NCBI GenBank assembly: GCA_001805645.1
Contig: MHGQ01000041.1
Coordinates: forward strand, 1 to 52,614
Reading direction: 5' to 3'
Origin: Omnitrophica WOR_2 bacterium RIFCSPHIGHO2_02_FULL_50_17
Lineage (GTDB): Bacteria > Omnitrophota > Gorgyraeia > Zapsychrales > Zapsychraceae
DNA length: 52,614 bases
A program made the position numbers and the translations under genes. Positions 5,953 through 44,195 of this stretch are shown here, in pieces (the stretch's first letter is position 1; every line of letters starts with the position of its first letter). The notes below the pieces were generated by a model, which was given only the letters and a program-made list of their open reading frames with translations, was not told the DNA's origin and did not search any database.

Positions 5953-5965
5953 GACAGCCTCCTTC

Positions 5966-6002
5966 TTCCCCTCCCCTAACCCCTCCCACAAGTGGAGGGG
6001 AA
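5966..6002. repeat. REP-like C/G-rich hairpin (CCCCTCCC...GGAGGGG family)
   Basis: ttcccctcccctaacccctcccacaagtggaggggaa; related copies at 28673-28758 and 42617-42646. Confidence 0.6.
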
Positions 6003-6158
6003 TAATATTAAATTCCTTCCCCTGATAAAGAGAGGAATCCTTCATATCAAAAGAAGGGGTGCCCTTCCCGGGAGCCGTCCTCGGGCCTCACCAAAACCGC
6101 CGGGGAGAAAAAAGCGATTTTCTGGAAAAACACCCCCCCCTTATAAACCATCCTATGG

Positions 6159-6193
6159 CGTGAAGCGTATCTCGTGAAGCGTCTCTCGCATTC
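6159..6193. repeat. Heptamer array, downstream arm of four-helix-bundle element A
   Basis: cgtgaag cgtatct cgtgaag cgtctct cgcattc; complementary to 6565-6592. Confidence 0.8.
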
Positions 6194-6196
6194 TCA

Positions 6197-6571
6197 TTAA
6201 AGTTTTTTGATCAAATTCCTGATCATCCGCGATTCATGATCAACTTTCTCAAGCAATTCTAATTTTATCGATTGACTGATATAAACTAAATCCTCACATA
6301 TCTCGATTTGTGTCTCCAGTTCGGCACAAGATCCTAAAGCCAAATAGAGAAACTGCCGATATTCTTTGTTATGATACCGGTTGAACCCCTCCGCAATATT
6401 TGATGGAATAGAAATTGCAGCCCTTCGCATTTGCGCGATCAAGGTAAATAACTCTTCTCTAGGGAATTCTCTCGTTGCTGCATAGACCATGCCCACTATC
6501 TTTTTGCCCAATTGCCAGATATCAAGATCCCTGAAATTCTTTATTTTCTGTTTTTCACTGTCCTGATTCAC
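6197..6571 (-). CDS. Four helix bundle protein (23S rRNA IVS protein family / Avd-like), copy A
   Basis: FRDLDIWQ...FPREELFTLIAQMRRAAISIPSNIAEG...FLYLALGSCAELETQ signature. Confidence 0.93.
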   Translation of the reverse strand: MNQDSEKQKIKNFRDLDIWQLGKKIVGMVYAATREFPREELFTLIAQMRRAAISIPSNIAEGFNRYHNKEYRQFLYLALGSCAELETQIEICEDLVYISQSIKLELLEKVDHESRMIRNLIKKL

Positions 6572-6592
6572 GATTCACTCTTCACGTTTCAC
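6565..6592. repeat. Heptamer array, upstream arm of element A (contains the GTG start)
   Basis: gattcac gattcac tcttcac gtttcac. Confidence 0.8.
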
Positions 6593-6598
6593 GATCTT

Positions 6599-6728
6599 AA
6601 AAAGAGGGGTGCCATGCATCGAGCACCTCGGATTTCCCTTTTTTCAGGTTTATCCCCCCATGCGATACCCTTCTCTTTAGGCTCTTTCCTACGAAAGAGC
6701 CTAAAGAGCGCATGGACACCCCCTTTTT
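6599..6728 (-). other. Multi-branched structured intergenic element (candidate ncRNA/attenuator)
   Basis: Outer inverted repeat aaaagaggggtgccatgc / gcatggacacccccttttt enclosing a perfect 16-bp stem (6673-6708). Confidence 0.45.
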
Positions 6729-6787
6729 CATCACACAAATAGCCACAGAAACCCAGCGCATCCGCCTTCGGCGGACGATACACCTGA

Positions 6788-7063
6788 TTATCCCTTTGTT
6801 TTTTCCTGAATTTTGTCCTTCCCGGTCTTATCCATTCCAACGGCCAGGTCTTCGCTGAAGCATTTCTTGCAAGGGGTATACCCTTCCTTCAAGGCGCCCC
6901 CTTTGTCAATCTTGCTCAGGTCCTTTTTGCCCTTGATAAGCCGGCATATCTCCTTGTGGTATTTACTGCCCTTTTGCGTTACAAAAACCTCGTCGGCAAA
7001 AACACTCGTTGCGACCGACACAAACACAACCAACATCCCCACCATCACTGTCTTACGTATCAT
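6788..7063 (-). CDS. Small secreted protein with Ada-like metal-binding domain
   Basis: Signal peptide (MIRKTV...SVFA) then VFVTQKGSKYHKEIC...GYTPCKKC motif; ATG at 7063 with GGAGAAGAGG RBS. Confidence 0.75.
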   Translation of the reverse strand: MIRKTVMVGMLVVFVSVATSVFADEVFVTQKGSKYHKEICRLIKGKKDLSKIDKGGALKEGYTPCKKCFSEDLAVGMDKTGKDKIQEKTKG

Positions 7064-8726
7064 TGCCTCTTCTCCTTTTTTGTGCCCTGTGGCTATAAGG
7101 GTTGACGTTCTCCTGCATAAGACGGCTGAATTCCCCGCCGGTAAACGCATCGATAAGGGCGGTCAGCTCCTCGACGCGCATCTGTTTATCCAGCCGTATC
7201 TGCGGCTCCAGCGCAGAAGCCATGGCCAATTCCATCTGGATTCTGCGCCGCTCAAAATACAATCGGGTGACCTGATCCAGGATATCCTCGCGCAACTCCA
7301 CCATAAGTTTCGATCGCGTATCAATACCGGTCTGGTCATCGCTCCAAATCAGATCACCCAAATCCCACGAAAGCGCGACATCCCAATCGAGGAGGTCGCG
7401 CCCTTTCACAAGCGCATCGGGATTGGCGCCCGTGTCCCAGTGAAAAAATTCGCTGTCAGCCCTGTCTATCCCGACGGACAAAGACGGCAAAAAGGCCCTC
7501 GTCCGGGCCAGGCTGCGCCAGCTTTTGATTTTGTCCGGATGCACTTCGGCATAATCAATGGCCCAGCGGTGCACCTCGCCGATCGCCGGCTCGTCATGAA
7601 AATTCTTATCCATCTCTTCCAAATCCTTCATGGGTGTCTTTGTCCCTTTATCTCCTTGTAATTCTGAAAAAGGGAGCGCTTTCCCGTCGGGCAAATAAAA
7701 AATGCCCTTGTCCGTCGCCGCATAAACCGTCTCTTGCGCATCCCGAATCAAATGGTTCACCTGATTTGTCTCCATTCCTTTGTAGAGAGACATCCAGCGC
7801 CCGTCTTCAAAGACAAACGCCCCCTTTTTTGTCCCTGCCAACAGGCGCACGCAACGAATGTCGCCTGCAGGGCAGTGTTCACCGTGGCTGGTTGAGGGGA
7901 CCTCAAGGCTTACTAAAGAGGTTATTTCATTTAACGGGAGGGGCCCGGCGGCGATCGGCTGCCATTGCTGTCCCTGATCAGCGCTTGAATAAATCCCCTT
8001 GGACGAGGCCAGGAAAAGGCGGCCGTTGGGAGCAACGTGAAGCGAGCGAATGATAGAATTGTCGCCTGAATCGAACGTCTCATCGGAGGTGTTATCCCCG
8101 TTGGGGATATCACGAATTCCGACGGAAAATACCGCCGCATACCGCTCTGCCTGTTTATGCATCCGGTATAAGCGCCTGTCTGTTGCCAGATAAATAAAAT
8201 CCTTGTCCTGGACCGTGTGGTAAACCGACCTGTCCCCCAGCTCCCCTTCGAGGGTCCGCCAGGTTGTTCCCGGAAAATCCCTGCGGCGCAGCCCCCGGGA
8301 GGTTGCGGCATAAAGATGCTTTTCATCCTGAACAACCGACAGGCATTTCCTGGCCTCTGCATCGGAATCATAATAAATCCTTCGCCATCTCTCCCCCTCA
8401 TCAAGACTCTCATACAAGCCTGCGTCCGTAGCCGCGTAGACGGCCTGCGGTTGGTCCGGCGGCACATAAATAAAGTTAACTTCTTTAGACTCGCCGTCCG
8501 GCTGAAAAACGCTTCGGTAGTCTCTTCCCCTATTATTAGATTTGTAGAGAGCCTTGGCGGTGCCGGCATAAATGACGGACTCATTCAAGGGATGAACGGC
8601 CAGGGCGCGGACATCGGACTCATAAATCCCATCCGATGCCCTTTGCCAGATGAAAGAAGCCGCAGAAAAGCCAAAACAGGTAAAACCGGTCAAAAGAATA
8701 AAAAATACTCGTAAGAAATCCTTCAT
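7053..8726 (-). CDS. Secreted BNR/Ycf48-like beta-propeller protein with C-terminal TolC/outer-membrane-efflux-like helical domain
   Basis: Signal peptide; repeated LYxSxDxGxxW (Asp-box) motifs; C-terminal WDVALSWDLGDL and helical LREDILDQVTRLYFERRR segment. Confidence 0.65.
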   Translation of the reverse strand: MKDFLRVFFILLTGFTCFGFSAASFIWQRASDGIYESDVRALAVHPLNESVIYAGTAKALYKSNNRGRDYRSVFQPDGESKEVNFIYVPPDQPQAVYAATDAGLYESLDEGERWRRIYYDSDAEARKCLSVVQDEKHLYAATSRGLRRRDFPGTTWRTLEGELGDRSVYHTVQDKDFIYLATDRRLYRMHKQAERYAAVFSVGIRDIPNGDNTSDETFDSGDNSIIRSLHVAPNGRLFLASSKGIYSSADQGQQWQPIAAGPLPLNEITSLVSLEVPSTSHGEHCPAGDIRCVRLLAGTKKGAFVFEDGRWMSLYKGMETNQVNHLIRDAQETVYAATDKGIFYLPDGKALPFSELQGDKGTKTPMKDLEEMDKNFHDEPAIGEVHRWAIDYAEVHPDKIKSWRSLARTRAFLPSLSVGIDRADSEFFHWDTGANPDALVKGRDLLDWDVALSWDLGDLIWSDDQTGIDTRSKLMVELREDILDQVTRLYFERRRIQMELAMASALEPQIRLDKQMRVEELTALIDAFTGGEFSRLMQENVNPYSHRAQKRRRGNDT

Positions 8727-8813
8727 TTCATCGCATCCTTATCCATCTTCTCAACGCACATGACACTTAAGGCCTTCCCCACTTTCTATCAACGAATGAC
8801 GCATACGAAACGA

Positions 8814-8842
8814 AGTGTAACATGGTATTGATTATTTGTCAA
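8814..8842 (-). promoter_or_regulatory. sigma70-type promoter of the propeller-RHS operon overlapped by an operator
   Basis: Minus strand TTGACA-17 bp-TACACT with extended -10 TG; the -35 lies in the imperfect palindrome ATTGATTATTTGTCAA (8827-8842). Confidence 0.6.
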
Positions 8843-8950
8843 GTCTCGTTGATTTTTATACAATTTATAATATATTGATTTATAATGGGTTACAATCGTG
8901 TAAAAAAATTTATTTTTACTCCGGGGAATTATTGATTTTTAATTAAAAAT

Positions 8951-8980
8951 GATTGACTATTTGTCAATCTGTGGTACACT
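8951..8980 (+). promoter_or_regulatory. Promoter of XRE regulator overlapped by palindromic operator
   Basis: GATTGAC-TATTT-GTCAATC perfect inverted repeat (8951-8969) containing TTGACT, 16 bp from TGgTACACT. Confidence 0.6.
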
Positions 8981-9006
8981 TCATTTACCACACGAAGGGG
9001 GAGAAA

Positions 9007-9558
9007 ATGTACATCGGAAAACGACTCAGAGAAATCCGCCAGGCCCAGGGCATGAGCCTCACCACCCTGGCCGAAAAAAGCGGCGTCCAGATCGCGACTT
9101 TAAGCCGGATGGAAAACTTAAAAATGACCGGGACGCTGGAATCACACATGAACATCGCCAAGGCACTGGGAGTGGACGTCACCCAGCTCTACACCGCTAT
9201 TATTAGAGAAGAGAGCAAAGCCGAGGCCGCCACTACGAAGTCCGCTTCGGATGTCTTTATCCACAGCGACAAGTCCTCCTACGAGATCCTCACCTCCAAT
9301 GTCTTGGGCAAGCGCATGATGCCGATTCTTTTAAAGATCGAACCGGACGGCCAAACCAATACCGAGCAAAACCGCCCCGGCTCGGAGAAGTTCATTTTCG
9401 TCCTGGAAGGAAAAATCGAGGCCCGCGTCGGCGATAAGACCTATCCCCTGGCCAAAGCCAACAGCCTGTATTTCGACGCCTCGCTGGAGCACTATTTCGT
9501 GAATACGGGGAAATCTACCGCGCGGATGATCTGCGTGGGGACGCCGGTGGCATTGTAA
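9007..9558 (+). CDS. XRE-family HTH transcriptional regulator with cupin domain
   Basis: IGKRLREIRQAQGMSLTTLAEKSGV...LSRMEN HTH; C-terminal cupin (EKFIFVLEGKI...SLYFDASLEHYFVN); ATG at 9007 after GGGGGAG. Confidence 0.93.
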   Translation: MYIGKRLREIRQAQGMSLTTLAEKSGVQIATLSRMENLKMTGTLESHMNIAKALGVDVTQLYTAIIREESKAEAATTKSASDVFIHSDKSSYEILTSNVLGKRMMPILLKIEPDGQTNTEQNRPGSEKFIFVLEGKIEARVGDKTYPLAKANSLYFDASLEHYFVNTGKSTARMICVGTPVAL

Positions 9559-9560
9559 AA

Positions 9561-9610
9561 GTTGAAAAATGTTACAAGAGGTTGGAAAATGTTGGAAAAA
9601 GTTACAGCAA
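9561..9610. repeat. Decamer array, upstream arm of element B
   Basis: gttgaaaaat gttacaagag gttggaaaat gttggaaaaa gttacagcaa, starting 2 bp after the XRE stop. Confidence 0.85.
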
Positions 9611-10005
9611 TGAATACTCGTCCTTATGAAAAGCTGAAATTCTACAAGGATATATGTGAAATCAGAAGGTTTATTCACAAAATAACAAGCCGTTTTGAGA
9701 AATCACATCTTCGCCTGGTTTCCCAGATGCGAGATGCGGCAAGGTCAGCCAAACAGAATATTAGGGAAGGCTATACCAAAGGCACCTTGGGAGAATTTAA
9801 GCATAGCATTAAGATAAGCCAAGGCTCCCTCGAAGAGCTTTGCGGTGACATGCAAGACTGCCATGATGACCGATTAATATCAAGTGAAGAATTTGAGGCC
9901 TTCAAAACTTTACACAGAAGCGCAAGCTATATGAGCACACGATATTTAAAGGCCATGTCCCAAAAAACGCAAATAAACAACTGGAAAGTCCCGTTCAAGC
10001 AGTAA
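9610..10005 (+). CDS. Four helix bundle protein, copy B (divergent)
   Basis: YEKLKFY...LVSQMRDAARSAKQNIREGY...ISQGSLEEL; start could be 9589. Confidence 0.88.
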   Translation: MNTRPYEKLKFYKDICEIRRFIHKITSRFEKSHLRLVSQMRDAARSAKQNIREGYTKGTLGEFKHSIKISQGSLEELCGDMQDCHDDRLISSEEFEAFKTLHRSASYMSTRYLKAMSQKTQINNWKVPFKQ

Positions 10006-10080
10006 ATGCAACTTATGGCAACCTGTAAAACCTTTAACATCGTTCAACCTATTTCAACCTCTTTAAACCTCTTTCAACCT
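10006..10080. repeat. Decamer array, downstream (inverted) arm of element B
   Basis: ...atcgttcaac ctatttcaac ctctttaaac ctctttcaac ct. Confidence 0.85.
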
Positions 10081-10098
10081 TAAGTCACGGAGGGTATT

Positions 10099-10467
10099 AT
10101 GTCTACACCTAAGATTCTCATCGTCGACGACGAAGAAGGCGTGCGCGAGTCCCTCAAACTCATCCTGGGCGACTATTATGACATCATCCTGACTGACAGC
10201 GGCGAGCAGGCCTTGCGCTGTCTGGAGAAAGACCCCGCAATCGGCCTTGTCCTTTTGGATATCAAAATGCCCAAGGTCAACGGGCTGGAGGTGCTCAAAG
10301 CGGTCAAGGCCAAACGCCATGCCCTCAGCGTGGTTATGGTGACCGGCTACAGATCGGTTGAGACCGCCGCGGAGGCCACGCGCCTGGGTGCCTCGGGGTA
10401 TATCGTAAAGCCCTTTAAGTCGGACGAGATTCTGGCCACCGTCCAGCGCTGCCTTGCTTCAATATAG
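10099..10467 (+). CDS. Single-domain response regulator (REC)
   Basis: ILIVDDE...LVLLDIKMP...MVTG...YIVKPF. Confidence 0.95.
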   Translation: MSTPKILIVDDEEGVRESLKLILGDYYDIILTDSGEQALRCLEKDPAIGLVLLDIKMPKVNGLEVLKAVKAKRHALSVVMVTGYRSVETAAEATRLGASGYIVKPFKSDEILATVQRCLASI

Positions 10468-10501
10468 GGACAACCTTGAAAAGCTATAAAAAACAAAAAA
10501 C

Positions 10502-10615
10502 TGGCGGGAAACCCTGGAGATCATGCGCGATCCGGAGATGATGAAAGGCATCCAGGAAGGCCAGCAGGACATCAAAGCCGACCGGCTGTGTTCGAAAAAA
10601 AAGTGTTTGGAAAAG
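10502..10615 (+). pseudogene. Remnant of Phd/YefM-type antitoxin C-terminus
   Basis: Frame reads WRETLEIMRDPEMMKGIQEGQQDIKADRL then VFG after a shift in an A8 run; no N-terminal domain or toxin. Confidence 0.5.
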
Positions 10616-11976
10616 CACAGAAAAGACCCTAAAGGTCTTGACGCATTGAACAAAGAAAACCTCCTCGCGCTGCTTCCGCGCTGAAGACGGCGGGGGAAAA
10701 ATTTGAAATAATGCGATGCCATACCTAACCCTATTATCCGTATTTGCCCTTTTAACCGCAATAACATGTTTCTTGCTCGGCCTACTCATCGGCATATGCG
10801 GCAAAACCAAATTGCACAGAGTTTGGTCCTTATTTCAATTTTCTGTTGCGGGGTGGGGAGTTCTTGCGTTCTTATAGACTATATCCAAAGACCCAAATAC
10901 TGCTTACGATCTTTGGCGGCTCTCTCATCTCTTTGGAGTTTATATTTCCATATTTTTCTTTCACTCGACGTGTCTTTTCTGCAATTTATCCTATCCAAAA
11001 CTTATTAAAGCATCTTATCTTTATGGTGTGTTAAACAACATAGCGCACACCGCAAATAATGGTCACTTGCTTTTTAAAGAAGAACATGTCAAATATCTTT
11101 TTGATTCCGTATATTATCCTCAAGCCCATGCTTTCAATCTCCTGTTAGCATTAGCACCGTGGATCTTCTTGACAATATTCAGCATGTACCACCTGTATCG
11201 TTATTCAAAAATACACGGAGATAACACGGGCCACCAAGCAAAATTATGGCTTATTATATCAATTTTAGGTTACACGGGTGGTTCCTCAACTTTTTTACCA
11301 ATGCTTGGCATTAACCTTTACCCAAACGCCCTTCTCTTGCTCCCCAGCTACGCGCTTATGCAGACTTATGCTATTTTCAAATACCAATTATTCAACTTAA
11401 GAATTGTTCTAGAAAAAAGCATCATCTATTCTGTGTTGATCGCTATTATATCTATTGCCTATTTAGCCATAGTGCTCACGGCAGAAAAAGTACTGCAAAG
11501 CATACTTGGGTATCAATCTGCTTCCATTAGCCTTTTCGCGGCCTTTGCAATCGGTATCATGGTCATTCCTTTACGCAATAGAATCCAAGCATTATTAGAT
11601 CGGTCTTTGTTTAAAGGAACGCAGCCGGAAATCGCAGCAGAGAATGCATTACTGCGCCAGGAGATCGCGCAGTCGGAAAAGTATAAAACGCTCTCCACGC
11701 TGGCCACGGGCATCGCCCACGAGGTGAAAAATCCGCTCACGGCCATCAAGACATTTTGCGAATACCTGCCCCAGAAGCTCGACGACAAGGAATTTCTCCT
11801 TAAGTTCTCAAGGCTTGTCGGCCGTGAAGTTGACCGCATCGACGGGATGGTCCATGAGCTTCTGGATTACGGGAAACCCGCTCCTCTGTCGCTTAAGGAA
11901 ACAGACATCCAAAGGCTGATCACAGATACGCTGGATATTTTAAGCAATAAATTTCTGGCTCACCATATTACCGTTA

Positions 11977-12011
11977 CCTGCACCCTAGACCCTAAACCCT
12001 GCACCCTAAAA
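11977..12011. repeat. Single-arm heptamer array inside kinase CDS
   Basis: cctgcac cctagac cctaaac cctgcac cctaaaa, translated as CTLDPKPCTLK. Confidence 0.75.
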
Positions 12012-12103
12012 ATAGATCCCACCCGTATCAAACAGGCGCTTCTGAATCTCTTCTTAAACGCCATTGACGCCATGCCGGGGGGAGGGAAATTGACTGTGAC
12101 GAC

Positions 12104-12179
12104 GAGGATTAAAGGAATAAAGGATTATAGGAATAGTGACAACCCCTCTAATCCTCTACCCCTTTATTCCTCTAATCCT
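12104..12179. repeat. Inverted octamer-array hairpin inserted in frame in the HATPase domain
   Basis: aggattaa aggaataa aggattat aggaatag / ccctctaa tcctctac ccctttat tcctctaa tcct; adds RIKGIKDYRNSDNPSNPLPLYSSNP. Confidence 0.85.
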
Positions 12180-12387
12180 GTATTTGAAATCTCCATCCAA
12201 GACACCGGCTGCGGCATCGCCGCCAAAGACCTGCCTCATATCTTCGATCCCTTCTTCACCAAAACCGACCACGGGACGGGCCTGGGGCTGACAATCACCC
12301 GGGGAATCATCGAACAGCACGGCGGGAAGGTGAGTATCCGCAGTCAAGTAGGGGTGGGGACGGAGGTGAGGCTGGAATTCCCGTACA

Positions 12388-12416
12388 GTGACTAGTCGCT
12401 GGTCACTAGGGACTAG
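12388..12416. repeat. Heptamer array, upstream arm of element C
   Basis: gtgacta gtcgctg gtcacta gggacta; contains the kinase stop codon. Confidence 0.8.
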
Positions 12417-12420
12417 AAAA

Positions 12421-12774
12421 ATGGAAATAAAAGATTATAAAGACTTGAAAATCTGGCAAAAAGGAATCGAGCTGGTTAACAAAACTTATTCGATTACCGA
12501 AAAATTCCCTAATAGCGAACTGTATGGTTTAACAAGCCAGATGCGAAGAGCGGCGATTTCGATTCCTTCCAATATCGCTGAAGGATTCGTACGCAAACAT
12601 ACAAAAGAGTACTTCCATTTCTTAACGATATCGTTGGGATCTTGTGCAGAATTGGACACGCAGGTTATTATCGCTGTGGAAAGAAAATATATCAGCAAAG
12701 ACTTATGTGATAATTTTACGAATGAATTATATTACGAAATGCGGATGATAAGCAGCTTACTTAACAAACTATAA
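12421..12774 (+). CDS. Four helix bundle protein, copy C
   Basis: YKDLKIWQKG...FPNSELYGLTSQMRRAAISIPSNIAEG...SLGSCAELDTQ. Confidence 0.93.
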   Translation: MEIKDYKDLKIWQKGIELVNKTYSITEKFPNSELYGLTSQMRRAAISIPSNIAEGFVRKHTKEYFHFLTISLGSCAELDTQVIIAVERKYISKDLCDNFTNELYYEMRMISSLLNKL

Positions 12775-12786
12775 ATATCTTTTTAC

Positions 12787-12814
12787 TAGCGACCAGCCCC
12801 CAGCGACTAGCGAC
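12787..12814. repeat. Heptamer array, downstream (inverted) arm of element C
   Basis: tagcgac cagcccc cagcgac tagcgac. Confidence 0.8.
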
Positions 12815-12817
12815 TGT

Positions 12818-14023
12818 TCAAATCTTCCCCGCCTCATACAGCTCCACCAGGGCATCGACAACGGCCGGATTAAACTGCGTGCCCGTACAGCGCTTAATCT
12901 CAGCCATCGCGGCTTCTTTGCTTAAGCCTTTACGATAGGGACGGTCCGAGGTCATGGCATCAAAGGCGTCGGCAACCGCAATAATGGCCGCCGCCCAAGG
13001 GATATCCTCGCCTTTGAGGCCCTCGGGATAGCCTTTGCCGTCAAAATGCTCATGATGGTATTTGATGCCCTCAAGACATTCCCGCGGTAAGCGAAGGGGG
13101 CCGACCATCTCGCTGCCGCGCACGGTATGCTGTTTCATGACAGCGTATTCCTCGTCGGTCAGTTTACCCTGTTTATTGAGGATGACTTCAGGAATCGCTA
13201 TTTTGCCGATATCGTGCAGAAGAGCGGCGATATAGATACTTTCAAAAAAACTTTCCTCGAACCTCGCCGATCCGCCGGCCCCGCCAACAGCGGGGGTGGC
13301 GGCCATCTGCCGGGCGATCGCCACCGAATATTCCGTGACACGGCCCGTGTGCCCGTGCGTGTAGGCGTCTTTGGCTTCAATCGTCGAGCCTAAGACCTCG
13401 ATTGTCTGCAGGAACAACTGGCGGTTACGCTCCGCCTCGCGCTTTAAACCTTCAAAGAGCTGGGCGTTGCGGATCGCCATCGCCGCGTCCGAGGCGAGCG
13501 CGGCGAAAAAATCCAGCTCCGGCTGTTCAAATTTCGTTCCGTCGTGCTTTTCCCCCAAAAGCAGAATCGCCATCAGCTTATGGCGATAATAGGCCGGCAC
13601 GCAGGCAGCGGTATTGAGCATCTGCATCTGTTCGTCCACCCTGTAAAGAAGCTCTTTGACGGCCTTGCCGTTTCCGTTATGGATGATGCTCTCGCGCCAG
13701 ACGAGGCGGTTGATGTCGTCGGAGACAATCGCGTTGCGGTCTAAAGTCAATGGCCTAAACTCCCTCTGGCTGAAAATTCTAATCAGAGGGCTCTCATGGC
13801 TGAACCGCGTAAAGCCGGGGGGCACTTTCATGCCTATTTCCCCGCGCGAGATATTCAGGACATAAATATCCTTCTTGGGCTCATAAAGGATCATGGCGGC
13901 ATGCTTGATATGGAGCTTGCGGACAATCATGCGGACAATGAGCTTGATCAAGAGCCTCGGGTCATGAATCATGATCATGCCCTTGCTGGCGGTCTCGAGT
14001 TCTTTTTTATAGTCAATCTTCAT
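12818..14023 (-). CDS. GAF + HD-GYP domain cyclic-dinucleotide phosphodiesterase
   Basis: YTHGHTGRV, LLHDIGK, HHEHFDGKGYPEGL, VADAFDAMTSDRPYR; N-terminal GAF. Confidence 0.92.
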   Translation of the reverse strand: MKIDYKKELETASKGMIMIHDPRLLIKLIVRMIVRKLHIKHAAMILYEPKKDIYVLNISRGEIGMKVPPGFTRFSHESPLIRIFSQREFRPLTLDRNAIVSDDINRLVWRESIIHNGNGKAVKELLYRVDEQMQMLNTAACVPAYYRHKLMAILLLGEKHDGTKFEQPELDFFAALASDAAMAIRNAQLFEGLKREAERNRQLFLQTIEVLGSTIEAKDAYTHGHTGRVTEYSVAIARQMAATPAVGGAGGSARFEESFFESIYIAALLHDIGKIAIPEVILNKQGKLTDEEYAVMKQHTVRGSEMVGPLRLPRECLEGIKYHHEHFDGKGYPEGLKGEDIPWAAAIIAVADAFDAMTSDRPYRKGLSKEAAMAEIKRCTGTQFNPAVVDALVELYEAGKI

Positions 14024-14024
14024 T

Positions 14025-14155
14025 GAAAAAGGTTGGAAGACGTTGCAAGAGGTTGGAAAATGTTAGAAGAGGTTACAGTCCTTAACCTGTTCCTAACCTC
14101 TTAACCTTTCGAAACCTTTTCTAACCTCTTGTAACCTTTTCTAACTTTTAACTAA
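14025..14155. repeat. 'Empty' inverted decamer-array hairpin of the same family as element B, with no ORF
   Basis: gttggaagac gttgcaagag gttggaaaat gttagaagag gttacag / ...ctttcgaaac cttttctaac ctcttgtaac cttttctaac; shares caagaggttggaaaatgtt with 9575-9593. Confidence 0.88.
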
Positions 14156-14511
14156 CGCTTTAACTCTGCAAGTACAATCTTCTCCAGCTCCTCCAACACC
14201 AGCGGCTTGTGGATATATCCTCTCACGCCGTAAGCATTAGCCATGTTCATCGTCTCTTCGTCCTCGACGCCGGTCACCATAATGACTTTGGTGTCGCTGC
14301 CCTTGTCGCGAAGCTCTTTAAGGACATCCACACCGTTCATCTGCTCCATGCGCACGTCCAGAAGGACCAGATCCGGCTTTTCCTTGTCGATAATCTCCAG
14401 CGCCTCCTGCCCGCCGCTGGCGGTAAAGACGTCAATCTGACGTTTGGCGAAAAACCGCCGGGCGAACTCCCGGATGTCCATTTCGTCGTCGACAATGAGT
14501 AATTTGGGCAT
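14152..14511 (-). CDS. Single-domain response regulator (REC)
   Basis: MPKLLIVDDE...PDLVLLDVRM...VIMVTG...YIHKPL. Confidence 0.95.
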   Translation of the reverse strand: MPKLLIVDDEMDIREFARRFFAKRQIDVFTASGGQEALEIIDKEKPDLVLLDVRMEQMNGVDVLKELRDKGSDTKVIMVTGVEDEETMNMANAYGVRGYIHKPLVLEELEKIVLAELKR

Positions 14512-14528
14512 GATTGTACTCCCTTTCA

Positions 14529-14561
14529 AGACTATAGACTATAGACGATAGACCATAGACT
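14529..14561. repeat. Heptamer array, downstream arm of element D
   Basis: agactat agactat agacgat agaccat agact. Confidence 0.85.
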
Positions 14562-14566
14562 TGGGT

Positions 14567-14926
14567 TTACAATTCCCGCTTTACGGCTTCAATGAGACCA
14601 AACAAAGTCTTTGCGACCTCTTGCTTTTGTTCCTCGATTCTGCCAAATAATTCGTCTCTCAAATAACCCAATTTATTGGCTAAATGAAGAAGATATTCTG
14701 TTTCAGCGAGCGATGCTCTGGCCACATATAAAAACTGCAAATAATCTTTTTGATGCTGTCTGCTGGCGCCTTCGGCGATATTGGTCGGGACGGACACAAC
14801 TGCCCGGCGAAGCTGAGATGTCAGTCCGTAAAGCTCCTCTTTCGGGAACTGCTGGGTCACTTTGTAAATCTCAACGGCAAAATCATCCGCCAATTGAAAC
14901 GCTTTAATACTCTTGTAATTTCTCAT
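14567..14926 (-). CDS. Four helix bundle protein, copy D
   Basis: MRNYKSIKAFQLA...FPKEELYGLTSQLRRAVVSVPTNIAEG...ARASLAETEYLL. Confidence 0.93.
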   Translation of the reverse strand: MRNYKSIKAFQLADDFAVEIYKVTQQFPKEELYGLTSQLRRAVVSVPTNIAEGASRQHQKDYLQFLYVARASLAETEYLLHLANKLGYLRDELFGRIEEQKQEVAKTLFGLIEAVKREL

Positions 14927-14949
14927 CACTGTCTTCTCTATCAACCACC

Positions 14950-14977
14950 GGTCTATGGTCTATTGTCTATGGTCTAT
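14950..14977. repeat. Heptamer array, upstream (inverted) arm of element D
   Basis: ggtctat ggtctat tgtctat ggtctat; contains the stop codon of the upstream kinase. Confidence 0.85.
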
Positions 14978-17145
14978 GTCGCTATAGGTAAAACCAGCCT
15001 CGTCCGCGAGCCTTCTTTGTATTCCGACGTAAATTCCACCTTCCCCTGGTGGTTTTCCTCAATGATTTTCCTCATCACATACAACCCCAGACCCGTTCCC
15101 TTTTTGCTGGAAAGTTTCGTCGTAAAAAACGGCGTAAAGAGCTTATTAATATCCTGCGGCCTGACGCCGATGCCGTTGTCGCTAAGGAGAATCTCCAGGT
15201 TCTGGCCGTTGGAATGAGCCGTGATTTCCAGCCTTCCTTTGTAACCAGGCTCCTTGAATTCCTCCTGCCTCTCCATCATGGCATCATAGGAGTTGTCGAT
15301 GATATTGAAAAAGACCTCCTGAAGCTGCGTAAAATTTCCGTGAACCGGCGGGACCGCGTGGTCGAAATTCCGGACGATGTCGATGCGGTTGAGTTTAATC
15401 TTAAACTGGACCATCTCCAGCGAGGCATCCAGGAGCTTGTTGAGGTCAACGGCGCCAAAGCCCTCCTCGGGCTTGCGGGAATATTTCAACAGCCCCTCGA
15501 CGATCTCGCCGCCTCGTTTGACGTTGTCCTGAATCCTGTCCAGCGAATGCTCGATTTCTTCCAGAAGTTCGCGCGTCTCCGGCGGCAACGGGTCTTTTTT
15601 TTTGAGCCGGATGGTGTCCACCGCGTCCCCGGCGATAAAGCCCATCGCGTGCAGGCGGTTGTTGATCTGGTGCGAGAGTCCGTCAGCCATGGTCCCGATG
15701 GTGGCCATCTTCTCGGCCTTGATAAGCTGTTCGTGCGTCTTTTTCATCTCCTCGTAAAACTGAGCGTTTTCGATGGCCAATGCCGCCTGATTGGCGAGAA
15801 TGGAGAACACAATCAAGTCATCGTGGCTGTATAACTTCCCGGATTTTTTCTTTCCCAGCGCGATAAAGGCAATCAGACGCTCATCCATGAAGCTCGGGAC
15901 AATCAACGCCGCCTGCAGGTCTTCCATGACCTTTCCAATTTCGGCTAAAGCCTCGTCCTTAAAATCCACACTGCGCTGTTTGACCTCATCGTAAACCAAA
16001 GGCTCGCGGTGTTTCTGCAGATGCTGAATCAAAACGGCGTCGCCGGCAATGACACCACTCCTTCGGTCGCCTCCTATGCCCTTGGAGGCCTTCAAGACGA
16101 ACTGACTGGAAGATTCATGGAAAAGATAAATGATGCTGTGCTCGATTTTGACCGTCCGCGTCACGATATGGACGATCAGATTCAGCAGTTTTCCAAGCTC
16201 CTTGACCCTTCCCATCCCGAGTGATGCCCGGCGCAGGGCCGCCTGATAGCGCCTCTGCTCCTGCAAGAGCCGGTCTTCTGCCTTGCGCTGGATGAACAAA
16301 TAGATTGACGGCCCGACGGTGGCCAGGACAGTCGAGCTGATCAACGGCGCCAGCCACCACATCTCTCCCATTAAACTTTTCAACTGCTCCCGCCAGCCGA
16401 AGGCAAGGACAAAAGGAATGCCAAGAACAAATGAATAAATAACAAAAAAAATACTAGTACGTGTTACCGCGACACTAACATCCATTAACCTATACTTTAT
16501 AATCGCATAAGCAAATATTATAGGTAATTGAACTAAAAAAATAAACCCTAGAGGGAAAAGAGATATTCCATAGTTTGGAATAAAATCCACACTGCCAAAA
16601 GACGCTATAATAGATCCCAAGAGAACATATTTAGTTTTAGATAACTGGATAAGGTTTCTTTCTTTTAGAAGATTCAGGACAAGATCGACAAATCCAGCTG
16701 TAAAAAGTCCGATAAAAAAACATAAAAACAGTGGATGCATTTTTATGTTTGCCTGAGGGTAATAACCCCAAGAATAATGATAAAGATCGGCTATCAATAA
16801 GGGGGTAAAATATAAAAAATAAAGAAAGATTATTCCACCCACCCAGAAAAGACTCTGTAATAATCTAATTCTTTGTTTATTTAAAAATGTAGCTATAAAT
16901 TCGTAGAATGTTACCGGGATGAATATAATCCCTGCAAAACCCATCTTAAAAGCAATTAGCATATGGCTAATATCACTTATTCTGCTCGCCAAAGCATAAC
17001 TTATAAGCCAAATAAAAATAGCTATCGTTAACTTCAGAAATGCCCTATTTATTGATGAATTCTTATTCTTGACAAATGTGAGGATTCCAAATCCCAGAAC
17101 AAAAAAGGCAGCGAACACTCGAAGGGCATAAATAAGAATAGCCAT
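14974..17145 (-). CDS. 7TM-sensor + GAF histidine kinase
   Basis: About 9 hydrophobic N-terminal helices, GAF, LSHQINNRL H-box, NIIDNSYDAM, DNGIG, GTGLGL. Confidence 0.92.
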   Translation of the reverse strand: MAILIYALRVFAAFFVLGFGILTFVKNKNSSINRAFLKLTIAIFIWLISYALASRISDISHMLIAFKMGFAGIIFIPVTFYEFIATFLNKQRIRLLQSLFWVGGIIFLYFLYFTPLLIADLYHYSWGYYPQANIKMHPLFLCFFIGLFTAGFVDLVLNLLKERNLIQLSKTKYVLLGSIIASFGSVDFIPNYGISLFPLGFIFLVQLPIIFAYAIIKYRLMDVSVAVTRTSIFFVIYSFVLGIPFVLAFGWREQLKSLMGEMWWLAPLISSTVLATVGPSIYLFIQRKAEDRLLQEQRRYQAALRRASLGMGRVKELGKLLNLIVHIVTRTVKIEHSIIYLFHESSSQFVLKASKGIGGDRRSGVIAGDAVLIQHLQKHREPLVYDEVKQRSVDFKDEALAEIGKVMEDLQAALIVPSFMDERLIAFIALGKKKSGKLYSHDDLIVFSILANQAALAIENAQFYEEMKKTHEQLIKAEKMATIGTMADGLSHQINNRLHAMGFIAGDAVDTIRLKKKDPLPPETRELLEEIEHSLDRIQDNVKRGGEIVEGLLKYSRKPEEGFGAVDLNKLLDASLEMVQFKIKLNRIDIVRNFDHAVPPVHGNFTQLQEVFFNIIDNSYDAMMERQEEFKEPGYKGRLEITAHSNGQNLEILLSDNGIGVRPQDINKLFTPFFTTKLSSKKGTGLGLYVMRKIIEENHQGKVEFTSEYKEGSRTRLVLPIAT

Positions 17146-43466: not shown

Positions 43467-43493
43467 TTGTTATTCATTTGCATTTGGAATTTG

Positions 43494-44195
43494 TCATTTT
43501 TCATTAAATATGGCTCGTCCAATCCTTAACATATCCGCCCCTTCTTCGAGGGCAATCTCGTAATCGGAGGTCATTCCCATGGATAAATATTTCATCTCGA
43601 TGCGCTCATGGCCGGCAAAGTTTTCTTCTACGGCATCGGAGAGCTCCCGCAAATCACGAAAACACTGGCGAATCATTCCCTTATCCTCTGTCAACGGCGC
43701 CATCGTCATAAGGCCGTGCAACCGTATATGGGGGCAACGGCTAATGTTTTGAATCAAAGCCGGCACTTCATCGGGCTTGGCCCCGAACTTTTGCTCCTCA
43801 CCCGACGTATTGACCTCCACGAGAATCGTGATATCTTTGTTTAACTTGGCGGCCTGTTTCTCAATTTCCTCGGCAAGTTTTATACTGTCGACCGACTGTA
43901 TCAAGTCAAAAAGCTCAATCGCTTGTCTGACCTTATTGGTCTGCAGATGCCCGATCATGTGCCGGACGGCACGGACATGAAACCCGTCCAAGGCGGCAAA
44001 TTTCTTCTGCGCCTCCTGAACCCTGTTTTCCCCGATATGTTTGAGGCCGGCCTCCAGCGCTTCCTTGATCTGAGGCGCCTCGGCGTATTTCGTGGCCCCC
44101 ACAAGAATGATCTCGACGGGATCCCGGCCGAGTCTCTGGCAAACCGAGGCGATGTGCCCGCTGACACGAGAAAAATTCTCCCTAATCATTGCCAT
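43494..44195 (-). CDS. yggS: YggS-family PLP homeostasis protein
   Basis: GENRVQE, HMIGHLQTNK, LSMGMTSDY, RIGRAIF. Confidence 0.95.
   Translation of the reverse strand: MAMIRENFSRVSGHIASVCQRLGRDPVEIILVGATKYAEAPQIKEALEAGLKHIGENRVQEAQKKFAALDGFHVRAVRHMIGHLQTNKVRQAIELFDLIQSVDSIKLAEEIEKQAAKLNKDITILVEVNTSGEEQKFGAKPDEVPALIQNISRCPHIRLHGLMTMAPLTEDKGMIRQCFRDLRELSDAVEENFAGHERIEMKYLSMGMTSDYEIALEEGADMLRIGRAIFNEK

Follow-up and report, generated by a model that had tools for sequence, protein, structure and literature searches.

Four-helix-bundle genes between inverted tandem-repeat arms in an Omnitrophota genome: a candidate family of mobile hairpin cassettes

The stretch of DNA analyzed here (hereafter the window) is the whole of contig MHGQ01000041.1, 52,614 nt long and numbered C41 among the contigs of genome G000, the Omnitrophota bacterium RIFCSPHIGHO2_02_FULL_50_17 (1.92 Mb in 77 contigs, 92.8% complete, 50% G+C). 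Four genes for small four-helix-bundle proteins, A to D, lie within 9 kb of it, each enclosed by a short tandem array and, on the far side, the reverse complement of that array; a gene together with its two arms is what we call a cassette. A first-pass annotation made from the sequence alone had noticed the four paralogs and proposed that they are intervening elements carried in messenger RNAs (mRNAs) instead of ribosomal RNA (rRNA). Membership in the family is clear for all four, which pass both PF05635 (62-127 bits; cut-off 33.8) and TIGR02436 (53-123 bits; cut-off 24), even though the protein of gene B is divergent and aligns with that of gene A at only 24% identity. Gene D matches PDB 2GSC at E 1e-22, and the homologs 2GSC and 2RLD were each deposited with 5 chains. 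The only Pfam matches of the window's family proteins are to PF05635 and bAvd, with none to an HUH/Y1 transposase.

Arms were located with Tandem Repeats Finder (TRF) and by direct reading of the sequence (Table 1). The arrays lie exactly where the first-pass annotation had placed them. In every cassette the second array reads as the reverse complement of the first, and the repeat unit is distinct per copy (A, compound CGTGAAG+CGTATCT; B, a 10-mer; C, GTCRCTA; D, ATAGACC). We scored this symmetry as the best local alignment of 190 nt of one flank with the reverse complement of the other, with a threshold of at least 12; the weakest arms are those of cassette A (score 10), whereas B-D score 13-22. 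Minimum-free-energy folds of the sense transcripts place the open reading frame (ORF) in the loop of a stem, as anticipated, with 17-33 arm-to-arm pairs in A-D (counted between the first and last 60 nt), and the arms of cassette A at 6159-6188 and 6565-6595 are among those paired.

The cassettes are fitted tightly between protein-coding genes, and an Rfam scan of positions 5800-15300 gave no match to an rRNA family. Specifically, the 5' arm of cassette B begins at the TAA stop of an XRE-cupin gene (8953-9558), and its 3' arm stops 17 nt before a response regulator gene (10099-10467), whose GGAGG ribosome-binding site is spared. The TGA stop of a kinase gene (11028-12395) falls within the 5' arm of cassette C, and the TAG stop of another (14974-17145) is supplied by the first unit of the 5' arm of cassette D. 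No transposase gene lies inside cassettes A-D, in agreement with what had been noted before.

Two further hairpins of the window, missed by the first-pass annotation, contain no gene. That at 14028-14149, of B type, fills the gap between a response regulator gene (14152-14529) and an HD-GYP gene (12818-14023). The other, at 12105-12179 and built of 8-nt units, gives the kinase encoded at 11028-12395 some 16-20 extra residues that are missing from nearly all orthologs in our alignments; its third unit has TAT where the others have TAA, and thus the reading frame stays open. A resemblance of this kinase-internal hairpin to a microRNA precursor model of Rfam (28 bits; cut-off 70) was judged spurious.

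Table 1. Features of the window and of other contigs of the same genome (positions refer to the window unless a contig is named; strand and arm labels follow the sense of the enclosed gene).
Feature	Position	Strand	Basis and remarks
Cassette A, 3' arm (sense), C-rich, 14-nt compound unit CGTGAAG+CGTATCT (+ strand reading)	6159-6188	-	TRF period 14, 2.1 copies, CGTGAAGCGTATCT
Gene A, four-helix-bundle protein, 124 aa	6197-6571	-	PF05635 121.5 bits, TIGR02436 115 bits
Cassette A, 5' arm (sense), heptamers GTGAAnC/GTGAATC	6565-6595	-	TRF period 7, 4.4 copies
Cassette B, 5' arm, 10-nt units GTTGGAAAAT	9553-9607	+	TRF period 10, 5.2 copies (9553-9603); inverted-repeat score 17.5
Gene B, divergent four-helix-bundle protein	9562/9610-10005	+	PF05635 62 bits
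Cassette B, 3' arm	10032-10081	+	TRF period 10, 5.0 copies (10032-10080)
Solo array of heptamers (ACCCTAA x4.1) within the kinase gene, where length varies among orthologs	11982-12010		TRF; alignments
Gene-less hairpin, 8-nt units AGGAATAA, in frame within histidine kinase gene 11028-12395	12105-12179		TRF; fold -31.3 kcal/mol, z -5.8
Cassette C, 5' arm, GTGACTA/GTCGCTG/GTCACTA	12385-12416	+	Sequence read directly; inverted-repeat score 13
Gene C, four-helix-bundle protein	12388/12421-12774	+	PF05635 126.6 bits
Cassette C, 3' arm, ACTAGCG units (12785-12815 in TRF)	12785-12817	+	TRF period 7, 4.4 copies
Gene-less hairpin, B-type 10-nt units	14028-14149		TRF; fold -53 kcal/mol
Cassette D, 3' arm (sense), AGACTAT units (+ strand reading)	14529-14561	-	TRF period 7, 4.7 copies; inverted-repeat score 22
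Gene D, four-helix-bundle protein	14567-14923/14944	-	PF05635 125.9 bits
Cassette D, 5' arm (sense), ATAGACC units	14950-14978	-	TRF period 7, 4.1 copies
Solo array, AATGACA/TCATTTG unit family	43474-43505		TRF; unit search
RAYT-like (IS200/Y1-type) transposase genes	C66:12314-12988, C64:47312-48019		Each with its own perfect 19-20-nt inverted repeats
IS30	C74:5402-6394		Flank test

The architecture is a general property of the family. Our flank test covered 113 family genes, of which 9 came from G000 (found with a profile built from the four window proteins), 27 from 30 related genomes and 77 from genome contigs (drawn from 80 loci of many phyla), and was controlled with 1000 random intervals and 1564 non-family proxy genes. 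Enrichment of inverted arrays around the family, which the first-pass annotation had offered as a check on its proposal, is pronounced: 103/113 family genes score at least 12, against 6/1000 random intervals and 22/1564 proxy genes, and the count becomes 117/123 once metagenome loci are added. All nine family genes of G000 have inverted periodic arms by eye, eight of them above the score threshold. The top non-family scorers are two RAYT-like genes and one IS30, which indicates that the test detects real mobile elements; their flanking repeats are unrelated in sequence to the tandem-repeat arms. The family loci come from Bacteroidota, Planctomycetota, Acidobacteriota, Clostridia, Proteobacteria, Patescibacteria and other groups, and a copy on a Calothrix plasmid has clear GGGTGTA arms. 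The family itself comprises 20,301 clusters at 50% identity (matches at E <= 0.001) and is present in 28/31 genomes of our relative set. Among 96 cassettes that pass stricter filters, the repeat period is 7 nt in 78, 8 nt in 14, 10 nt in 3 and 6 nt in 1, and the arms have a median of 4.6 units (interquartile range 3.6-5.1, range 2.4-10); arms of 10-14 units also occur.

Two family genes call for separate mention. A copy on plasmid gamma of Nostoc sp. PCC 7120 (L212, 15088-15438) was set aside: it is followed by a C-rich heptamer array (CTGCCYT), but the array on its upstream side is not complementary to this, and the 5' arm may have been displaced by an ISL3 transposase gene found directly upstream. 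In G000, the family gene at C66:4144-4662 has an in-frame insertion of ~33 residues midway through the conserved helix region, touched by a short inverted repeat (4158-4177 and 4485-4504), and may be an element inserted into an element.

Arrays and hairpins of the same units are also dispersed without a gene. At one threshold, G000 holds 25 inverted array pairs, 5 with a family gene and 20 without, where the reversed-query control gives 11 matches. Searches with the units of single cassettes return 8 (A), 10 (D), 8 (F) and 10 (I) arrays in this genome, while permuted units mostly return 0. The compound motif of cassette A recurs in gene-less copies on C60, C26, C35, C56 and C61, the unit of the solo array at 43474-43505 also flanks a family gene on C64, and, with regard to the kinase hairpin at 12105-12179, locus L117 holds a gene-bearing cassette with GGATTAAA-like units. 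Dispersal of this kind extends to other bacteria. In an Acidobacteriaceae genome (G032), GTCAGTA arrays give 111 matches at ~40 loci against 0 in the control, and only one of its six family genes carries this unit; a Flavobacterium genome has two additional loci with a cassette unit; and a Lysobacterales genome has 70 TAGGGGA matches at dozens of loci, a count whose reversed-pattern control is invalid (reversal yields a rotated form of the unit itself), with TAGGGGA also flanking one of its family genes. An order-level sample around the Lysobacterales genome had the family in only 3/61 genomes and yielded no informative locus.

In two places on other contigs of G000, non-family genes stand between such repeats. 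The hemE gene (C60:7638-8651) is tightly bracketed by two gene-less A-type hairpins (7555-7640 and 8640-8745) that share A's compound motif. At C64:54081-55535, three to four AATGACA arrays surround a chain-length-determinant/tyrosine-kinase-like gene (54282-55067) and the adjoining family gene (55133-55504), and the former, a non-family gene, is thus placed between arrays of a cassette's unit.

Orthologous loci provide evidence for gain, loss and replacement at fixed sites. They were recovered by a metagenome scan with the HD-GYP protein as query (HD-GYP proteins 50-79% identical to the window's) and share a backbone of a second histidine kinase (HK2), a second response regulator (RR2), HD-GYP, the first kinase (HK1), and then the first regulator (RR1) and XRE-cupin. 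Presence and absence at such loci, another check foreseen by the first-pass annotation, vary from one gap to the next. The RR2-HD-GYP gap is empty (5-18 nt) in five loci and elsewhere contains gene-less hairpins of five unit types: B-type in the window, GTCGTCA in L111, GGCGTCN in L119, GTAAGTS with a loop of ~100 nt and one-unit differences among loci in L112-L114, and GCGTTGT in L126 and L127, whose hairpins differ by one unit. In L115 and L116 the same gap holds a full cassette with a D-like gene, with about ten units on one side in L116. The XRE-RR1 gap is occupied by cassette B in the window, by an 82% ortholog of gene B in L111 and, in five loci, by members of other clades whose identity to A, C or D is 44-51%, and has no cassette (23-40 nt) in four. 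In L113 (6041-6657) a B-type 5' arm of 10-nt units lies directly outside an AGGTGAT-type cassette at this site, with no B-type 3' arm left, and this nesting is the mark of a second element arriving where one was already present. A C-like gene (78%) lies at gene C's site in L115, and an ortholog of gene D (88%) at the same site in L111. L115 also has two cassettes, 86% identical, in adjacent gaps.

Gene-less hairpins arise in some cases from cassettes by deletion of the ORF. The hairpin between HK2 and RR2 in L112 corresponds to the L115 cassette with exactly 359 nt removed, the lost stretch beginning at the start ATG and reaching an ATGA at the stop, with flanks identical at 71/75 and 76/80 positions. 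A variant of cassette A with a 282-nt in-frame deletion (94 codons, 6252-6533) co-exists with the full form in metagenome contigs of three runs. Joints at 6189->6567 and 14560->14950 in DNA contigs were considered as excision products and rejected; their sides are only 21 nt long, and we attribute them to hairpins at other places that have the same unit. Joints at 14023/14025->14180, together with a loose end behind 14023 in X5, rest on 1-2 contigs each and point to strain variants with another hairpin type.

Both the genes and their arms are conserved. Between orthologous or closely related cassettes the ratio of nonsynonymous to synonymous divergence (dN/dS) is 0.04-0.15, with 0.04 for gene B. 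The arms are nearly unchanged where synonymous sites are saturated (24/24 to 26/27 identical at proportions of synonymous differences, pS, of 0.60-0.77), bearing in mind that arrays can slide in alignment and that arm lengths differ: cassette D and its L111 ortholog have arms identical at 26/27 and 24/25 positions at pS = 0.77, and another pair at 24/24 and 24/25 at pS 0.60. Units moreover follow the protein. Where two proteins share less than 50% identity, the units of the two cassettes are at a distance of at most 1 in a fraction of 0.01-0.02 of pairs; the fraction is 0.29 for proteins 60-70% identical and reaches 0.86 beyond 80%, in keeping with the co-diversification of arm and protein that had been proposed, and D-like proteins at different sites retain D-like units (AGACYAT-like). 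These patterns indicate that arm sequence, not merely complementarity, is constrained and that the constraint travels with the protein.

The cassettes also have a preferred placement and composition. Where flank length suffices, both neighbors are co-directional with the cassette gene in 74/111 cassettes, and the gene is antisense to both in 4/111, which places the elements in operons and, as the first-pass annotation had it, in mRNAs. The 5' arm starts at a median of 4 nt past the last sense codon of the upstream ORF. Overall, this arm contains 32% G and 13% C, with G exceeding C in 98/117 cassettes, falling below it in 14 and equaling it in 5. As the hairpin reads identically on both strands, the order with the G-rich arm first is intrinsic and unrelated to the strand of the gene. 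Unpaired RNA that is C-rich and G-poor provides the loading (rut) sites of Rho, a factor present in G000; a C-rich, G-poor arm transcribed first would stay single-stranded for ~400 nt and could act as such a site, whereas with the G-rich arm first the C-rich arm would pair immediately on being transcribed. In 40/115 of the 5' arms each of the three frames has a stop codon, against 24.8 +/- 3.6 in period-preserving permutations and 28 in reversed arms, an enrichment that is real but modest and gives no full account of arm composition. Stem mismatches are concentrated in one phase of the unit (140 vs 121.6 +/- 4.5).

Family genes are often close to one another. Four of the nine in G000 lie within the 9 kb of the window, and clusters of 3-6 within 5-21 kb were seen on four contigs of related genomes (G020:C43, G030:C35, G024:C7 and G017:C39) and in L111 and L115, an arrangement suggestive of local hopping or else of a hot spot among small signaling operons.

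Other repeats of the window stand apart from the cassettes. Just upstream of cassette A, at 5968-6002, lies a REP-like (repetitive extragenic palindrome) sequence (CCCCTCCCAC..GTGGAGGGG) at which contigs pile up in four metagenome runs, with a summed depth of 23-1835 against ~3-12 nearby and many loose ends on both sides; the element is therefore repeated many times. On C71, a membrane-protein gene stands between G/C-rich inverted repeats of similar kind (6728-6792 and 8070-8131). At its start the contig has a 21-nt unit x2.5 (45-96) and ACGAACG x2.6 (110-127), and may have been broken at a repeat.

We propose that the cassettes are an extra-ribosomal form of the intervening sequence (IVS) of 23S rRNA, namely a mobile, operon-dwelling hairpin cassette whose arms are the recognition sites of its cognate protein, and put the probability of this reading at roughly 55%. 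The cassette begins with a G-rich tandem array in which a unit of 7 nt (8 or 10 is less common) is repeated about 4-5 times; a brief leader, the ORF of the four-helix-bundle protein and a brief trailer follow, and the reverse complement of the first array closes it. On this reading gene and arms form one unit, with the architecture of an ORF-bearing 23S rRNA IVS set between protein-coding genes. Each arm would be made up of sites that the protein of the same cassette recognizes specifically, this protein being presumably a pentamer by analogy with its solved homologs, and the protein-hairpin complex would help to maintain or spread the element. Copies that have no gene would be relics or non-autonomous derivatives, related to the cassettes as MITEs (miniature inverted-repeat transposable elements) are to transposons and REPINs to RAYT genes. 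The median arm of 4.6 units is compatible with the pentamer idea; arms of 10-14 units exist as well. A broader version of the proposal, which we hold only tentatively and would not expect to survive in full, is that PF05635 cassettes are a major overlooked class of mobile element, in which the pentamer, non-enzymatic or newly enzymatic, recognizes a tandem code of 7 nt on the hairpin arms and thereby guides how its own cassette and gene-less hairpins spread, the family's thousands of specificities arose through protein-repeat co-evolution, and the class is the source both of ORF-bearing rRNA IVSs and of much of the heptanucleotide-repeat excess of bacteria (Xanthomonas GGGAATC, Geobacter paired sites, the short tandemly repeated repetitive [STRR] sequences of cyanobacteria).

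Several observations weigh against this proposal. To our knowledge the family protein has no catalytic activity, and the cassette has no transposase; filled and empty orthologous sites, when compared, revealed no target-site duplication. Gene-less hairpins occur in both sampled relatives that have no detectable family gene (5 in 291 kb of G012 and 6 in 400 kb of G022, where reversed-query controls gave 0 and 3, respectively), and some of these have units of the kind seen in cassettes of sister genera. No gene-less hairpin was seen in the 302 kb sampled from G024, which has 6 family genes, whereas G007, with 7, has 16 in 372 kb. Hairpins, therefore, do not simply track the family gene, and may outlive it or arise independently. 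The loops of same-unit hairpins in G032 are apparently unrelated to each other, which fits poorly with the copying of one MITE. Repeat period changes at least 13 times on the protein tree, compared with 14-18 times for shuffled labels, so that period is no stable trait of protein clades, on a tree that is poorly resolved at ~110 residues per protein. Lastly, co-divergence and arm conservation would also be expected if gene and arms were merely co-inherited and some other factor constrained the arms.

Four alternatives were weighed. Of these, we find most credible, though unlikely, a regulon in which each protein is a sequence-specific RNA or DNA regulator, the dispersed arrays are its operators, the cassette's own arms are autoregulatory and mobility is incidental. 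An identical unit at many operon-internal sites and the sequence-level constraint on arms would both follow, and heptamer arrays have been presented as regulatory networks in Geobacter metallireducens (PMC2700814), Xanthomonas (PMC4692102) and Beggiatoaceae (PMC4679880), in the parts of those accounts available to us. A conserved regulatory need is, however, hard to square with a single orthologous gap that has five unrelated unit types, or nothing, in near relatives, and neither the hairpin in frame within a coding region nor the hairpins of genomes with no detectable family gene are what a regulon predicts. Life at the RNA level, with the arms forming a double-stranded stem cut by RNase III or a similar enzyme, the ORF loop excised from the mRNA and the units mainly building the stem, is favored by the likeness to the homologous IVS of Coxiella, where RNase III cuts at the first heptamer repeat according to the available part of its description (PMC4990558), and would agree with the arm pairing in predicted folds and with sense orientation in operons (74 cassettes versus 4). 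The RNase III and G:U results do not fit. No RNase III gene was found in the 92.8% complete G000 with PF14622, PF00636 or tblastn of a relative's RNase III, and the two profiles detect the enzyme in only 2 of the 31 genomes of the family and order (G000 and 30 relatives), against 28 with the four-helix-bundle family, in a search whose control matched in only 8/14 reference genomes; if real, this leaves the whole clade without canonical RNase III. Cuts by this enzyme at the arms, part of the original proposal, are consequently unlikely in this organism. The only RNase III match above cut-off is on a 2.8-kb contig. Among sense-strand stem mismatches there is no G:U excess (G:U 105, A:C 112), so nothing shows selection on the RNA stem as such, and it is the sequence of the arms that is conserved, not just their complementarity. 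We accordingly rank excision from RNA below the regulon, as rather improbable.

Lower again, and distinctly implausible in our judgment, is an origin in which the hairpins came first, spreading by slippage and template switching or through RAYT-like enzymes, and the gene is a passenger that homes into their loops or is kept there. The numbers would suit it, as gene-less hairpins outnumber gene-bearing ones (20 to 5 in G000 at one threshold, ~40 to 1 in G032) and are found in G012 and G022 with no detectable gene, and so would the two RAYT-like genes of G000 and the L113 cassette adjoining a remnant arm of another type. Yet units follow the protein clade and not the site, two direct cases show a gene-less hairpin produced from a cassette by ORF deletion, and the RAYT genes have flanking repeats of their own that are not tandem. 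That the cassette genes are stray Avd accessory genes of diversity-generating retroelements (DGRs) we consider extremely improbable: there are weak matches to the bAvd and DivGenRetAVD models, but at 21-32 bits, far below the 80-bit DivGenRetAVD equivalog cut-off. Reverse transcriptase was found in 7/31 genomes, compared with 28/31 for the family; G000 has a single match, which lies on a different contig (C42), and 24/31 relatives have none. Being rarer than the family, it is not needed by the cassettes.

These results bear on a very large family, whose members are annotated only as "four helix bundle protein" or, wrongly, as "S23 ribosomal protein." One architectural rule joins this family, the ORF-bearing rRNA IVSs and several orphan heptamer-repeat families that have been described separately for decades. 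It provides a first concrete, testable hypothesis for the family, a pentameric ring that recognizes a tandem 7-nt code by sequence, and a natural library of protein-repeat pairs for studies of nucleic-acid recognition. Cassettes and hairpins also account for small in-frame insertions and hypervariable intergenic gaps in operons, and ORFs called across the arms should be treated as spurious in annotation.

The claim that the elements are undescribed stands in part. What appears to be new here is the general flanking rule for the family and the gene-less copies, whereas the architecture is known from ORF-bearing IVSs; a full-text literature search (subscription papers and supplements lay outside its scope) returned no published link between PF05635 genes and flanking tandem-repeat hairpins. 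The ORF-bearing IVSs of 23S rRNA in Coxiella burnetii, Leptospira and others share with the cassettes the protein family and a stem with the ORF in its loop, but lie in helix 45 of 23S rRNA, whereas cassettes occupy operon mRNA or intergenic gaps. The Coxiella IVS has a 28-bp stem with 2-3 tandem GACAGAT heptamers upstream of the S23p ORF, their copy number varying between strains, and is regarded as a selfish element with no known means of spread and a decaying ORF, in the part of the description available to us (PMC4990558). Its heptamers stand on the 5' side, whereas tandem arrays with a unit of their own per copy form both arms of the cassettes, whose gene-less copies are dispersed, whose genes are under purifying selection and in whose clade essentially no RNase III was found. 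A further comparison, and the only precedent for protein binding, is the Avd pentamer of DGRs. By cryo-electron microscopy, a single RNA stem-loop is in contact with each of its five protomers, and flipped-out bases are held where crevices separate the protomers (preprint 10.1101/2023.10.23.563531, in the part available). The one-phase clustering of stem mismatches in the cassettes is a point of likeness. Avd is a homologous pentameric barrel, but the cassettes have no reverse transcriptase partner, and their stems are 25-50 bp of repeats compared with 11 bp in the Avd-bound stem-loop.

In population structure, the cassettes resemble mobile elements of other kinds. In REPIN/RAYT systems a repeat stands in inverted copies on both sides of a gene and is scattered elsewhere as many gene-less hairpins, with several families per genome, each having a repeat of its own, and the cassettes are alike in having their gene between inverted copies of a genome-wide dispersed repeat and several unit families per genome. 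They differ from REPIN/RAYT systems and MITEs in encoding a four-helix-bundle protein with no HUH or tyrosine-transposase motif, and from REPINs in arms of tandem 7-10-nt units in place of a single imperfect palindrome; their gene-less hairpins also occur in genomes with no detectable family gene, unlike the REPIN/RAYT pattern. MITEs and insertion sequences share the inverted arms, but the cassettes have no target-site duplication and no transposase within. Rickettsia palindromic elements, short mobile palindromes that can insert in frame into protein-coding genes, are comparable to the kinase hairpin at 12105-12179, although the sequence organization differs and we know of no protein gene associated with them. 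Cyanobacterial STRR sequences, with tandem 7-8-nt units at many sites, are akin to the orphan heptamer families. These families, which include Xanthomonas GGGAATC (PMC4692102), the paired hepta- and octanucleotide sites of Geobacter metallireducens (PMC2700814) and Beggiatoaceae TAACTGA (PMC4679880), form 7-8-nt arrays at tens to hundreds of intergenic and intragenic sites, often as convergent stem-loop pairs with copy numbers that vary between relatives, and the available parts of their published descriptions make no link to PF05635 genes. The cassettes are thus set apart from rRNA IVSs by location, from REPIN/RAYT systems and from MITEs and insertion sequences by their protein, and are not parts of DGRs; they combine the architecture of an rRNA IVS with the population structure of REPIN/RAYT systems and of MITEs and insertion sequences.

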